From Escherichia phage OLB35, in the sequence record MH992122.1: a DNA stretch of 64,000 nucleotides. One strand, 5' to 3'. Position 1 is the stretch's first letter; each line of letters begins with the position of its first letter. The notes beneath the pieces were generated by a model. That model searched no databases. It saw only the letters and a list, made by a program, of their open reading frames with translations, and was not told where the DNA came from. This document shows, in pieces, positions 26,207 to 30,747 of this stretch. Made by a program: the position numbers and the translations under genes.

Positions 26207-26509
26207 TTAGATAGATGTAGACTCTAATTTTATTTTCATGAACTCGGCAAATTGTTTGGCAGTTTTTATGCCTTGTTCATGACATTCAAATGCATCATCA
26301 CAGGGGCTATTTTTGTAATGCTTTGCCATATACTTATAGAATTTTTCAGAGTTCTCGACATTTTGAATTTCAAACAAAGTATATACGTTTTTAATCCCTG
26401 ATTCCATAAAGTTATCAAAGTATGGGTCAACATATGCAGTACCAACGATAGGAGTTGTTGCTGCAAAAAACCCAAGCATCGCCATGACAGCTATCGCTCT
26501 TAAGGCCAT
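26207..26509 (-). CDS. rI: Lysis-inhibition regulator RI (periplasmic, signal-anchored)
   Basis: MALRAIAVMAMLGFFAAT...VDPYFDNFMESGIKNVYTLFE... matches T4 RI; lies just before tk. Confidence 0.8.
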   Translation of the reverse strand: MALRAIAVMAMLGFFAATTPIVGTAYVDPYFDNFMESGIKNVYTLFEIQNVENSEKFYKYMAKHYKNSPCDDAFECHEQGIKTAKQFAEFMKIKLESTSI

Positions 26510-26521
26510 ATAGGCCTCCTG

Positions 26522-26734
26522 TTAATTTTGGCCAGTATTTATTTTTCGCCTTTGGACGGCCTTAACATCTGCGAGGTATTTTTCCAGCTTTCGCTTGCGT
26601 GTATAATCAGCTTTAGAACCAGTTTGACGGATATCCTCGTTTAAATGAGAAATAGAATGTCCTAATTCTCTTCGGATTTCGTCCAATTGGGTTACAGTAA
26701 GATTACGAAGTTGTCTTTCGTTTAATTGCTGCAT
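26522..26734 (-). CDS. Hypothetical protein (rI.1 position)
   Basis: 70-aa ORF between rI and tk. Confidence 0.45.
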
Positions 26735-26761
26735 ATATACCTCTTGGTTAGATATTAGTAT

Positions 26762-27343
26762 TTATAACAACCCTGTCAAATCATTCCAATGCTTCCGGCA
26801 TAATGACACGTATCTATCGGTATCACCAATTTCAATTTGACTGCCATCTGTAATTGGAAGTCCGTCTTCCGTGACTCTAGCTACCATTGTGGCTTTTTTA
26901 CCGCAATGACAGACACCTTTAAGTTCAACAAGCTTATCGGCAATAGCCATTAATGCTTGAGAACCTTCAAATAGATTACCTTTAAAATCTGTTCGTAGTC
27001 CGTATGCCATTACCGGCACATTGTATACGTCAACAATACGACTAAGTTGATACACCTTTTCAGTAGTTAAGAACTGAGCTTCGTCAACAAATACACAGTG
27101 AATATCCTTTTGTGCTGCAGCCCATTTATAAAATTCAAAGATATCCATGTCTTTTGTAATTATATTGGCATCCTGACGAATACCAATACGGGAGACTATT
27201 TCACCTTTTGAATCGCGAGTATCAATAGCCGGTTTAAGAACTAATACACCCATGCCACGTTCTTTATAGTTATGTGCGGCAGTAAGTAATGAAGCAGACT
27301 TACCAGCGTTCATAGCGGCATAGGTAAAAATTAAACTAGCCAT
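26762..27343 (-). CDS. tk: Thymidine kinase
   Basis: 193 aa; P-loop YAAMNAGKS and C-terminal zinc ribbon CHCGKKA...CRKHW; T4 Tk-like. Confidence 0.9.
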   Translation of the reverse strand: MASLIFTYAAMNAGKSASLLTAAHNYKERGMGVLVLKPAIDTRDSKGEIVSRIGIRQDANIITKDMDIFEFYKWAAAQKDIHCVFVDEAQFLTTEKVYQLSRIVDVYNVPVMAYGLRTDFKGNLFEGSQALMAIADKLVELKGVCHCGKKATMVARVTEDGLPITDGSQIEIGDTDRYVSLCRKHWNDLTGLL

Positions 27344-27352
27344 AAGAGTCCC

Positions 27353-27535
27353 TTATAGTGAATTCACGTAGTCAATGAGTTCTTGTTCTTTCCTGTCAAA
27401 TGATTCCATCAATGCTTGATATTCTTCGTCTGTTAAAGGAGCATATTCATCGTACGCATTAGTGGCTGCTTGCTCATCCAATAGGTCATGGATAAGTTCG
27501 AACAGTTTAGTTTTCTCTTCTTTAGTTAATTTCAT
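27353..27535 (-). CDS. Hypothetical acidic protein
   Basis: 60-aa ORF. Confidence 0.4.
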   Translation of the reverse strand: MKLTKEEKTKLFELIHDLLDEQAATNAYDEYAPLTDEEYQALMESFDRKEQELIDYVNSL

Positions 27536-27753
27536 TTAGGTTCACCTTCTTTAATGAAATCCGGATAAGGATTAAATCCAGAATAAAATCCTTCACCTTT
27601 ATGATTGCTACAACCCTTGTTCGAGCAATAGCACCAATAATCAAAATCACAAGCCATTTCGTCATTGCATAGAGCAAATACTACAGGCCATTCACATTTT
27701 TCACATTTAGCACCTGTAAGAATTTTTGTTTGGCTCATAACAATGGTTCCCAA
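27532..27753 (-). CDS. Cysteine-rich small protein
   Basis: 73 aa with 9 Cys (CEKCEW...CNDEMACDFDYWCYCSNKGC). Confidence 0.45.
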   Translation of the reverse strand: MGTIVMSQTKILTGAKCEKCEWPVVFALCNDEMACDFDYWCYCSNKGCSNHKGEGFYSGFNPYPDFIKEGEPK

Positions 27754-28232
27754 TCAACAATCACAATTTCTAGTTTAGTGGAATACGTATCTAAAATCTC
27801 TTCGATGACATCCCAGTTTCCGCCACCGATACCTGCACCAATTCTTGGCATATAAATTACAGGCTTTGTTATCTTATTCTTTCCGAATTCATTTAATTCT
27901 ATTATACAATTCATTAAAGCAGGGTACTCAAAATTAGGTCCCGGCTCAAACTGTGTATAAAGATTAAAGCAATAAGCTTTATGGGTCTTAAAATATTTTT
28001 CATAAACCGAATAAGTCCCGAGTTTAGACTCGTCTCCGAATTCGGTTTGAAGTTTATCTGCTTCCAGAATTTTTGGATAAGCCTTTGCCAATTGACCTGC
28101 TACACCGGCACCCATTGTATGAAAACAATTGCACCCATGAGCAATATTATTACCTTTAGAAAACAGGGCGACAATATCGCCCTTGATATAGTTTTTAATC
28201 ACTTGCTGCAAGTCCTCTAGTATAAGAGTCAA
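27735..28232 (-). CDS. Macro-domain-like protein (putative ADP-ribose binding/processing)
   Basis: 165 aa; glycine-rich motifs MGAGVAGQLA and RIGAGIGGGNW resemble macro-domain signatures. Confidence 0.45.
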   Translation of the reverse strand: MTLILEDLQQVIKNYIKGDIVALFSKGNNIAHGCNCFHTMGAGVAGQLAKAYPKILEADKLQTEFGDESKLGTYSVYEKYFKTHKAYCFNLYTQFEPGPNFEYPALMNCIIELNEFGKNKITKPVIYMPRIGAGIGGGNWDVIEEILDTYSTKLEIVIVDWEPLL

Positions 28233-28533
28233 CTAGACGGTCCACCATAGAATTGCATGCTGCCTTATCTTTAGGTTCCGCCACCGAGCATTCTAATATT
28301 TGCCATTTTTTATGATATCGTTTAATTAAGGTAGACGCCTTGAACCTACTAGACGCCCCATCTTTTTCTCCGTCTTTATATGCGTATAACAATTTTTGTG
28401 AAAAATCTACTTTACACTCTTGACTTTTACCACAATAATCAGACGCCGTTCTGTTTGTATACTCCGTTACATCAGTATATGTAGTATTAGCAAGAGCGTT
28501 AAATGAAACCAAGCCAACTATTAAAGCCAACAT
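28195..28533 (-). CDS. Secreted/periplasmic protein with signal peptide
   Basis: MLALIVGLVSFNALA signal peptide; 4 Cys in the mature part. Confidence 0.5.
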   Translation of the reverse strand: MLALIVGLVSFNALANTTYTDVTEYTNRTASDYCGKSQECKVDFSQKLLYAYKDGEKDGASSRFKASTLIKRYHKKWQILECSVAEPKDKAACNSMVDRLVDSYTRGLAASD

Positions 28534-28538
28534 TTTGG

Positions 28539-29081
28539 TCATTCTTTTACTTCCAGTAGTTTATTTGATTTAAGGTAATTAGCCTTTTCTAGGACTTCAG
28601 AAGCATATTTACTGCCAGCACTTGTCTTCCATCCCGCATTATATGAGGATATAGCTTTTCTTATATCCCCGTTATGTATATTTAACCAATAAGAAAATTC
28701 GATATAAGCCCATCTTGTTGAATTAGACCGCTTAGATAGCATTTTCTTAATTTGGGCATCAGTCATATTATAACCAAGCTGGTTAATTCTTGCCCTCATT
28801 GTTGGTAGATAGTTTTGGAACATTCCATACGCATGGTGACCTTTCTTATCTTTAAGATTAATACCGGCAGATGATTCTTGCCATAGTATTGCGGCCATTA
28901 TGTATCCAAGTCCTTTCTTATGCATATTTTCATGCGTTTTAAATTTTCCGTCCTTAGAAAACTGTTCCCCAAACTGATAAGCATAATTCAAGTTATCGAG
29001 TTGGACATTACTAAAAGTATGCTCGGAGCTATGTGCTGATAACGAAAGAGCAAATAGACCAGCGAGTAGTGCTTTTCTCAT
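28539..29081 (-). CDS. Secreted lytic-transglycosylase-like (SLT domain) protein
   Basis: Signal peptide MRKALLAGLFALSLSAHS; WQESSAG...YGMFQ and SYNAGW resemble SLT catalytic motifs. Confidence 0.5.
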   Translation of the reverse strand: MRKALLAGLFALSLSAHSSEHTFSNVQLDNLNYAYQFGEQFSKDGKFKTHENMHKKGLGYIMAAILWQESSAGINLKDKKGHHAYGMFQNYLPTMRARINQLGYNMTDAQIKKMLSKRSNSTRWAYIEFSYWLNIHNGDIRKAISSYNAGWKTSAGSKYASEVLEKANYLKSNKLLEVKE

Positions 29082-29089
29082 GTTTACCT

Positions 29090-29548
29090 CTAGATTTTAA
29101 TCACTGCTTTAGAAGCTTTTCCTGGTAGTCGTTTACTGTTAATAATAGCCATTCTACATTGAAGAGTCTTCATTTTGAATGCCGGATTTTCGCGACAAAC
29201 TGTAAGTCCTAACCAAAGATTTCCATCAGTTATTTCTAAACGGCCTGGGCGATATTCGACACCTTCGACAAAATCTTCATCAACATCTGGACGTGCCGGC
29301 ATTGATAAAAATTCTGCAACTTCTTTAACATGATTTTTTACTTTACGAAATAATTCAAAAACGTAATTCTCATCTATTTCTCTCTGGATGGCACGATCTA
29401 AGAGATGTTGAGAATACTTGATATGAAAGCCTGGTAGTCCAAGAGACTTTGCAGCATCTTTTATACCGGCATTGATTTGACGAAACTCCGTTTCAAAGAT
29501 TCGACGGAGTTTATTGCGACGGATAAAAACTTCCGAATTGATAGTCAT
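29090..29548 (-). CDS. regB: RegB site-specific endoribonuclease
   Basis: MTINSEVFIRRNKLRRIFETEFRQIN...RLEITDGNLWLG...RLPGKASKAVIKI matches T4 RegB; the track ORF has 19 extra N-terminal codons. Confidence 0.88.
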   Translation of the reverse strand: MTINSEVFIRRNKLRRIFETEFRQINAGIKDAAKSLGLPGFHIKYSQHLLDRAIQREIDENYVFELFRKVKNHVKEVAEFLSMPARPDVDEDFVEGVEYRPGRLEITDGNLWLGLTVCRENPAFKMKTLQCRMAIINSKRLPGKASKAVIKI

Positions 29549-29628
29549 TTTTATTTCTCCTCTAGTTGACAGGTCTATAGTAACACAACTAGAGGAGAAG
29601 TAAACCACTTTTTGATAGGAATTAACTT

Positions 29629-29905
29629 TTAAACTGCTTTAGATACTTCGTCACGAACCTGGTGGAAGTTCTTGAGCTGTTCAAGGCGTTGTTCGTAATA
29701 CGCAATCTCATCTTCTTCAAGACAATCGTCAGCGTCTTCTTTCAGATATGCCTTGTACTCATTAAAGAGGGCCCATAGGCGGTTCTCAAAGTCATCAAGG
29801 CTTTGAATTTTCTTGTGCTTAGGAACAAGGCTAAAAGGATTGCTTTCAGTTATGCTTGTGACCTTTTCTTATGAGTTCCAAATACCCAGTAATAGTAGAA
29901 GCCAT
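29629..29905 (-). pseudogene. Frameshifted ORF ([14 protein letters not shown] then frame change)
   Basis: ATG at 29905 runs 19 codons to a TGA; an adjacent frame continues ...[15 protein letters not shown]...[28 protein letters not shown]; break at the T4 run 29864-29867. Confidence 0.5.
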
Positions 29906-30174
29906 TAGTATTTTTCCTCAGGTCGAAATACTGCACGACACGCCCACATGCTGGCTTCTTTTAGATGTTGCTTAGCGTACTTAAGAGCCTGCACTGCATC
30001 CATATCTTCTTTGGTTTGCTGCTCTGTTTCATTTTCTTTCAAGATATATGCTTCTTCAATAAGAGCATCAAACAGCAATCCAAGACGGACTTCTGCATCT
30101 TTAATAGCGTTCACTTTACCGATTTTATCATCGGTATGCGGCTTGTAGCCTTTGATGTCTTCAATCGACATAAG
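29905..30174 (-). CDS. Hypothetical protein
   Basis: Internal-Met start (MSIEDIKGYKPH...), ~89 aa; the longer track form overlaps the upstream gene. Confidence 0.45.
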   Translation of the reverse strand, partial: LMSIEDIKGYKPHTDDKIGKVNAIKDAEVRLGLLFDALIEEAYILKENETEQQTKEDMDAVQALKYAKQHLKEASMWACRAVFRPEEKY

Positions 30175-30385
30175 GAATTTCCTCATCGGTGGCAAGGTCA
30201 TATTCGACCAATTGGATAGGCTCGTTAATACCATATCCACGTACAGTGATATCGGTTGTCGGATATTTTCCAGTAATATCACCCATTCTAAATGATTCAG
30301 TGAATGATTGCTCGCCTGAATTACTAAACCATTCTGCGAAAGCATTTAGCACATCTTTAGACCCTTCTATAATCAATTTAGCCAT
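30161..30385 (-). CDS. Hypothetical acidic protein
   Basis: 74-aa ORF. Confidence 0.45.
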   Translation of the reverse strand: MAKLIIEGSKDVLNAFAEWFSNSGEQSFTESFRMGDITGKYPTTDITVRGYGINEPIQLVEYDLATDEEIPYVD

Positions 30386-30747
30386 TATAGACTCTCAGTA
30401 AAGGTACGAGCGATAACGTCGCGCTGCTGTTCCGGAGTCAGAGAGTTAAAGCGAACTGCATAACCGGATACACGGATGGTCAGCTGCGGATATTTTTCCG
30501 GATGCTTAACTGCATCTTCCAGAGTTTCACGTCGCAGAACATTAACGTTCAGGTGTTGTCCACCTTCAATTTTAACTTTAGGTTGATGTTCAATTTCAAT
30601 TTCACGGGCATTCAAACCGTAGAAAATTTCCGGGTCTACAATAGCGTCTTCTTTAAAAGTCTTAGAGGCAATAATCCGGGCTTGAGTACCGTCTTCAAAA
30701 TAAATAGTGCCTTTATGTGCACCTTCAAGAATTTGATATGCTTTCAT
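30385..30747 (-). CDS. Autonomous glycyl radical cofactor (GrcA/YfiD-like; T4 Y06I family)
   Basis: C-terminal [29 protein letters not shown] glycyl-radical motif; the last ~60 aa look like E. coli GrcA as recalled. Confidence 0.85.

Follow-up and report, generated by a model that had tools for sequence, protein, structure and literature searches.

The closest described counterpart of the gene analysed here is tk.4 of bacteriophage T4, whose RefSeq entry reads 'phosphatase; contains A1pp phosphatase motif'. A November 2025 preprint recovered tk.4 as the single significant hit of a T4 transposon-library screen on a DarTG2-expressing host, found that its clean deletion renders T4 sensitive to DarTG2, renamed the gene adfM (anti-DarT factor, macrodomain) and proposed that its product removes ADP-ribose from DNA (bioRxiv 10.1101/2025.11.20.689424); DarTG2 was assayed there at 30 °C in M9 glucose. 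This result fits the earlier finding that T4 lacking both adfA and adfN is still DarTG2-resistant, from which a further factor was to be expected (PMC11825919). T-even phages carry several anti-DarT tools, represented in T4 by AdfA, AdfN (gene 30.3) and AdfM. For Tk.4 itself, the basis is the genetic requirement in T4 together with sequence and structure, from which we infer both its enzymatic activity and its chemistry.

A second phage protein carries the same name. PhiKZ gp104, also called AdfM, has been shown by biochemistry to remove DarT2-made ADP-ribose from DNA, and an N23A substitution weakens its activity (PMC13309987, Cell Reports 2026); of the two proteins so named, it is the one for which biochemical proof exists. 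Hydrolysis of thymidine-linked ADP-ribose (thymidine-ADPr) is common to several members of the same macro class, namely DarG, SCO6735 and also TARG1 (PMC12879935). Among these, SCO6735 of Streptomyces coelicolor cleaves DarT-made thymidine-ADP-ribose on DNA and carries a glutamine, Gln85, in its active site: the Q85A variant is inactive and N27S nearly so, and the proposed reaction relies on a water molecule positioned by the backbone, in place of a nucleophilic lysine, with the glutamine orienting the distal ribose (PMC9411070).

The window, that is, the whole 64,000-nucleotide stretch of Escherichia phage OLB35 (MH992122.1), belongs to a T4-like phage, as indicated by roughly 3 kb around the gene that are 97–98% nucleotide-identical to numerous T4-like phages of Escherichia and Shigella, TH12, AlbertHofmann and Shf125875 among them. 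The minus strand encodes, in order, a GrcA-like glycyl-radical protein, RegB, Vs.1, Vs, the gene under study, a zinc-binding small ORF, a DUF7438 (Tk.2-like) ORF and thymidine kinase (Table 1), which matches the T4 order regB–vs.1–vs–tk.4–tk.3–tk.2–tk.1–tk, with O157 typing phage 6 also included in the comparison. Downstream of the gene, the PF23895 zinc-binding ORF takes the place that tk.3 occupies in T4. The sequence-only reading had located the gene next to thymidine kinase; it does lie near tk, but the two do not adjoin, as two small genes intervene. The upstream neighbour vs is genomic context and not a functional partner.

The encoded protein is 83% identical to T4 Tk.4 (AdfM, NP_049723), with 129 of 155 residues shared over the full length and 0 gaps, and the two are alike in length, start position, place between vs and the small tk.x genes, and all family-invariant residues, which together identify the window gene as the tk.4 (adfM) ortholog. 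The differences comprise 26 substitutions, including GGG in the second pocket loop where T4 has GKG, and a GTG start codon in place of the T4 ATG. The anti-DarTG2 phenotype is that of T4, described in a single preprint; the genetic requirement for an ortholog this similar on a DarTG2 host supports the earlier proposal that the protein could counter ADP-ribosylating host defences, with DarTG named as a test case. The window itself contains one macro ORF only, and neither an AdfN (T4 30.3) homolog nor, with a single DarT2 seed of limited sensitivity, a DarT2 homolog was found in it. Relatives were found in 2,799 of the 50,697 phage records, and phage annotations call the gene a 'macro domain protein', a 'phosphatase' or a 'Poa1p-like family protein', or leave it hypothetical. 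Both the gene and the anti-DarTG2 role of its T4 ortholog are already known, and the discovery value of the locus as such is small, since the gene is widely annotated and the role of the T4 ortholog already assigned.

Table 1. Features at and around the tk.4 (adfM) ortholog, in window coordinates.
Feature	Position	Strand	Basis or remark
vs (valyl-tRNA synthetase modifier, 115 aa), upstream neighbour	28195..28542	-	Position and length as T4 vs
10-codon 5' extension, TTG start	28203..28232	-	Within 3' end of vs; probably not translated as part of the protein
GAGGA, possible Shine-Dalgarno	28213..28217	-	11 nt upstream of GTG; read from sequence
tk.4 / adfM CDS (most likely extent)	27735..28202	-	155 aa; single macro domain; GTG 28202..28200; TGA 27737..27735
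Loop 1 region HGCNCFHTMGAGVAG, residues 22-36	28095..28139	-	Translation and alignments
NLYTQ, residues 80-84	27951..27965	-	Translation, hhalign and multiple alignment
Loop 2 PRIGAGIGGGNW, predicted diphosphate/distal-ribose loop, residues 119-130	27813..27848	-	Translation and alignments
PF23895 zinc-binding small ORF	27532..27738	-	
DUF7438 (Tk.2-like) small ORF	27353..27535	-	
tk (thymidine kinase)	26762..27343	-	

The gene had previously been read as a 165-aa ORF at 27735..28232. That minus-strand frame exists and its translation is the 165-aa sequence quoted earlier; its length, however, is probably overstated, the protein more likely comprising 155 aa. When the DNA is aligned with that of T4 and Escherichia coli O157 typing phage 6, the T4 tk.4 ATG falls on the GTG at position 28202. 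Owing to a 1-nt indel immediately 5' of this codon, the longer, TTG-started frame is not conserved in T4; a 1-nt indel also displaces the vs stop between the window and T4. T4 tk.4 measures 468 nt and encodes 155 aa, as does the gene annotated in O157 typing phage 6, a close relative, and tblastn matches in T4-type phages start at residue 11 of the 165-aa translation. On these grounds we dropped the TTG start at 28232 and took the gene, most likely, to have the shorter extent, with the ten extra codons probably not translated as part of it.

Further features of the 5' region are consistent with initiation at the GTG. The GAGGA upstream of the start, which is also found in T4, may serve as a ribosome-binding site, and the last codons of vs overlap the GTG (GTGATTAA, with the vs stop TAA at 28197..28195), an arrangement that suggests translational coupling of the two genes. 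Other candidates in the region were set aside. Two plus-strand ORFs that overlap the conserved minus-strand gene, at 27730..27855 and 27981..28220, were taken as its shadow ORFs, and a terminator-like hairpin within its 5' portion (28183..28165, minus strand) found no support as a functional structure, the 121-nt fold scoring z = -0.98 against shuffled sequences. Promoter-like sites in 26500..30000 numbered 8, below the 11.3 obtained in shuffles.

The initial macro-domain call had been made from motif resemblance only, and it is now confirmed by a Pfam profile, by sequence matches to solved structures and by a predicted structure. The Pfam Macro model (PF01661) matches over positions 2–117 of 118 with 26.7 bits, above its curated gathering cut-off of 22 (E = 5.7e-6), and PHROG 335, a family labelled 'phosphatase', matches with E = 1.4e-66. 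All significant sequence matches in the PDB are macro domains, namely BT1257, Poa1p, SCO6735, DarG and TARG1, and a profile built from 72 homologs, mostly from phage-like contigs and reaching down to ~36% identity, lifts these matches to E-values between 1e-18 and 1e-12, with 70 bits for BT1257, 62 for TARG1, 60 for SCO6735, 55 for Poa1p and 50–52 for DarG. Profile-profile comparison with hhalign assigns a probability of 99.4% to both DarG and TARG1. An AlphaFold2 model built on the homolog alignment (pLDDT 94.8, pTM 0.90) retrieves Poa1p, TARG1, BT1257 and DarG as its best Foldseek matches in the PDB (E ~1e-10 to 1e-7, TM 0.7–0.8); 145 PDB matches have E <= 0.001, and the best 50 of the 145 are all macro domains or macro-scaffold designs. 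The profile and structure comparison with DarG that had been put forward as a check therefore returned a match by both Foldseek and hhalign, with the macro fold present in the model. Taken together, sequence profiles and the predicted structure identify the protein as a genuine macro domain with a three-layer alpha/beta/alpha fold, and assign it to the stand-alone macro domains of the TARG1/DarG/SCO6735/Poa1p (ALC1-like) class. Within this class its best neighbours, by structure and sequence alike, are human TARG1/OARD1 (4J5Q-4J5S), yeast Poa1p (6LFQ-6LFU) and Bacteroides BT1257 (2FG1/2AFC).

Both glycine-rich motifs on which the first call had been based are present in the translation (Table 1), and in alignments with TARG1, DarG and SCO6735 they coincide with the pair of loops lining the ADP-ribose pocket, through which ADP-ribose binding is predicted. 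In the first loop, Asn25 aligns with SCO6735 N27, with the second Asn of the DarG 'NTVN' motif and with PhiKZ AdfM N23, and it is invariant in the 72 homologs, as are G23 and G33, with H22 nearly so. In the second, P119, I121, G122 and G124 are invariant in the same set, G122 and G124 aligning with SCO6735 G126 and G128. Between the two loops lies the NLYTQ motif, in which N80, Y82, T83 and Q84 are likewise invariant. Profile-profile, HMM and multiple alignments concur in placing Q84 at the position of the catalytic lysine of DarG (K80) and TARG1 (K84), where SCO6735 has Gln85. Q84 is furthermore invariant in 79 bacterial homologs; as the patterns used to fetch these sequences spanned both loops and left out the NLYTQ motif, its conservation in this set is independent of how the sequences were chosen. 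N25, Q84, G122 and G124 are invariant across the 72 mostly phage-derived and the 79 bacterial homologs, and the wider pocket set of H22, N25, G31, G33, Q84, G122, G124 and W130 is invariant or nearly so in phage and bacterial members; the family signature reads HGCNCF…D…K…NxYTQ…PxIGxGxxGGxW.

The catalytic residues of TARG1 and DarG are replaced in this pocket: both positions of the TARG1 K84/D125 dyad are changed, to Q84 and G126, and the DarG catalytic Lys80 (FPTK motif in Thermus aquaticus DarG) corresponds to the same glutamine. The functional precedent for such a pocket is SCO6735 (PDB 5E3B), which shares the Gln at the catalytic-lysine position, the Asn holding it in place (N27; N25 in the window protein) and the loop-2 glycines, belongs to the same macro class and is likewise encoded by a stand-alone gene without an adjacent DarT. 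The two proteins are only ~23% identical, and by profile score the family is no nearer to SCO6735 (60 bits) than to TARG1 (62 bits). SCO6735 and BT1257 have a loop after the Gln that is 6–7 residues longer, which the alignment renders as a gap in the window protein; the mobile SCO6735 loop with Lys89 and Lys94, proposed to bind DNA, is absent, and at the position of V25, the SCO6735 residue thought in that proposal to fix the catalytic water through its backbone, the window protein has Gly23. BT1257 has the Gln as well, and so does the non-catalytic ALC1 macro domain, so the residue alone is no proof of activity.

With orthology, fold and pocket observed, we consider it probable that the protein is a counter-defence thymidine-ADPr hydrolase that would undo the damage done by DarT2 to phage DNA under replication. 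The host toxin DarT2, part of DarTG2, attacks single-stranded phage DNA by ADP-ribosylating thymidines within TNTC motifs, which blocks replication; in the proposed sequence of events, the phage macro enzyme would then bind the ADP-ribose through its two glycine-rich loops and hydrolyse the thymine-ribose bond, restoring the DNA. Because an invariant Gln84 replaces the catalytic lysine of DarG and TARG1 while Asn25 is kept, the chemistry would most likely be lysine-independent, as proposed for SCO6735.

The resemblance to Poa1p invites a different reading, in which the protein would act on small ADP-ribose derivatives, as an ADP-ribose-1''-phosphate phosphatase or an O-acetyl-ADP-ribose deacetylase, and the DarTG2 phenotype would reflect an indirect effect or a side activity. 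Poa1p, known for its phosphatase activity on Appr-1''-p, is the top Foldseek match; its HxCNC motif recurs in the window protein, and the conserved H22 and T29 align with Poa1p H23 and S30, residues mutated in deposited Poa1p structures. The labels 'phosphatase' for T4 tk.4 and PHROG 335 and the 'Poa1p-like' names elsewhere point the same way, but these database names were assigned by homology transfer rather than by experiment. Poa1p moreover has a Ser at the Q84 position, whereas the family Gln is the one that SCO6735 needs for hydrolysis of DNA-linked ADPr, and the sole experimental result on an ortholog is DarTG2-specific. Appr-1''-p arises from Tpt1/KptA-type RNA repair, to which no tie was seen for the window gene. 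We therefore regard a primary role in small-molecule metabolism as improbable.

The loss of the DarG catalytic lysine could also be taken to mean that DarT2 is neutralised mainly by binding and inhibition of the toxin, a form of antitoxin mimicry without catalysis. Indeed, the catalytically dead variants SCO6735 Q85A, DarG K80A and TARG1 K84A still inhibit DarT in vitro, SCO6735 most strongly (PMC9411070). The window protein, however, has no counterpart of the DarG C-terminal DarT-binding domain, at 155 aa against the 338 positions of the DarG model, and its pocket residues are kept in homologs near which a single-seed search found no DarT, a pattern that points to catalysis or ligand binding, and not a toxin interface, as the target of selection; we consider inhibition as the main mode of action distinctly improbable.

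A third possibility, to which we give little credence, is that the protein reverses ADP-ribosylation of protein or RNA, be it the phage's own Alt/ModA/ModB marks or those set by host RNA-targeting toxins such as CmdT. T-even phages do encode ADP-ribosyltransferases, T4 alt for example; the Alt and Mod enzymes modify arginine, and macro domains are not known to hydrolyse arginine-linked ADP-ribose, which counts against reversal of Alt/Mod marks. TARG1 and SCO6735 act on protein-linked ADPr as well (PMC9411070), and CmdTAC restricts T-even phages through mRNA ADP-ribosylation, but the CmdTAC paper names neither Tk.4 nor any phage macrodomain (PMC11618068), and we dropped the link to CmdTAC on that account. 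Degradation of the Thoeris gcADPR signal, or another counter to NAD-depleting defences, is hardly credible: it draws on no more than the broad notion that cyclic ADPR derivatives could be substrates of macro domains (PMC9503650), nothing was found that ties tk.4 to Thoeris, and among characterized relatives the closest are glycohydrolases or phosphatases with 1''-linked ADPr as their substrate, not cyclic ADPR hydrolases. Accordingly, the earlier suggestions that the protein might oppose NAD-targeting defences or control the phage's own ADP-ribosyltransferases found no support.

Returning to the thymidine-ADPr hydrolase reading, the relationship to DarG merits separate consideration. The DarG macrodomains of T. 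aquaticus (5M31/5M3E) and Mycobacterium tuberculosis (5M3I) share with the window protein the fold and class (Foldseek TM ~0.75), the conserved Asn, the Gly-rich loops and DarT2 as the biological opponent. Beyond the catalytic residue, the two differ in that the window gene has no adjacent darT. Scores of DarG models mark the window protein as a distant relative of DarG: the NCBIfam model antitoxin_DarG (NF048014) yields 30.4 bits, far from its cut-off of 250, over model positions 4–146, and the PADLOC DarG model yields 31.8 bits, against 132.9 for PhiKZ AdfM. PhiKZ gp104, in turn, is a close DarG relative that matches M. tuberculosis DarG with E = 9e-25 and retains the FPTK lysine. It resembles the window protein as a stand-alone phage macro domain directed against DarTG2, down to the conserved Asn, yet the two are only 21% identical. 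The sequence comparisons thus place the two 'AdfM' proteins on different branches of the macro class, as non-orthologous proteins.

Homologs of the window protein are also common on bacterial chromosomes at 35–43% identity, in Rhodobacterales, Desulfobacter and Hymenobacter, for example, with at least 473 confirmed stretches. Around 80 such homologs, a tblastn search with P. aeruginosa DarT2 that covered 4 kb to either side gave no DarT2-like match below E = 2, although divergent DarT genes could escape this single seed; clustering of the ORFs at the same 80 loci revealed no universal partner gene, neighbours being shared within taxa only. We therefore disfavoured an origin from DarG, given the absence both of DarT, as judged with that single seed, and of a universal partner. 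Provisionally, the distribution suggests that T4-like phages took up a stand-alone cellular macro enzyme and PhiKZ-like phages a DarG-type domain.

We accordingly put forward, as a proposition that we hold to be evenly balanced, that T4-type AdfM represents a separate Gln-bearing macro family, stand-alone and widespread in bacteria, instead of a captured DarG; that macro domains were recruited twice, independently, against DarT2; that the family cleaves its substrate by a lysine-independent, SCO6735-like reaction; and that its bacterial members may be toxin-free DNA de-ADP-ribosylases. The specialist interest of the locus, beyond the tk.4 literature, lies in a T4-type AdfM with the glutamine of SCO6735 and without the lysine that DarG and TARG1 need. 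If the protein is confirmed as a thymidine-ADP-ribose hydrolase, the lysine-independent mechanism would reach a very large phage and bacterial family, and the shared name 'AdfM' would span two non-orthologous enzymes.

The stop codon of tk.4 is overlapped, in an ATGA arrangement, by the start codon of a directly downstream Cys-rich ORF whose product matches the Pfam 'Phage zinc binding domain' (PF23895, E 5.9e-29) and which is present in 743 phage records. T4 carries Tk.3 at the same position, although the two products are unrelated. Between this ORF and tk sits a second small gene, encoding a product that matches DUF7438 (PF24219) and whose C-terminus is closer to T4 Tk.2 than to Tk.1. The phage thus has two small genes between tk.4 and tk, as compared with the three of T4 (tk.1-tk.3). 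In many close relatives, the 3-kb region around tk.4 is longer by approximately 209 bp.

Features of the tk.4 neighbourhood in the window
Feature	Coordinates	Strand	Remarks
DUF7438 ORF	27353..27535	-	60 aa; PF24219 match
Zinc-binding ORF	27532..27738	-	68 aa, Cys-rich; Pfam PF23895
Terminator-like inverted repeat	28165..28183	-	AGGGCGATATTGTCGCCCT; within tk.4 codons 7-13
vs (valyl-tRNA synthetase modifier)	28195..28542	-	overlaps tk.4 start
Vs.1 ortholog	28539..29081	-	180 aa
RegB, true gene	29090..29608		in the window
Stand-alone glycyl-radical domain protein	30385..30747	-	120 aa; Pfam Gly_radical

At its other end, tk.4 starts within an overlap with vs, the T4 counterpart of which is reported to show the strongest depletion of any T4 gene in minimal medium (HIDEN-SEQ preprint). 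Unlike its T4 counterpart, vs does not end in an ATGA overlap here, because a 1-nt indel places its stop at a TAA lying 5 nt beyond. Codons 7-13 of tk.4 also harbor the terminator-like inverted repeat AGGGCGATATTGTCGCCCT, followed by GTTTTCT, and T4 likewise carries this repeat. Folding of this region is no better than that of shuffled sequences (z = -0.98), and the repeat is therefore probably a by-product of the tk.4 coding sequence.

Further upstream, the Vs.1 ortholog features a hydrophobic N-terminus that, judged by eye, resembles a signal peptide, and the protein scores just below threshold against the SLT lytic transglycosylase domain (19.4 bits; cut-off 21.3). In the record of O157 typing phage 6, a close relative, vs.1 and several neighbours all bear the name 'endoribonuclease RegB', apparently carried over during annotation. 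The glycyl-radical protein (Gly_radical, E 2e-18) matches T4 vs.6 in both position and annotation, the latter being GrcA, a spare glycyl-radical cofactor.

Beyond phages, the bacterial genome contigs of loci L003-L082 encode a large family of stand-alone macro-domain proteins of about 150 aa. A tblastn search within 4 kb of these genes, using a single DarT2 seed, detected no adjoining DarT-like gene. Common to phage Tk.4 and this bacterial family are the motifs HGCNCF, NxYTQ and IGxGxAGGxW, together with invariant Asp49 and Lys60.
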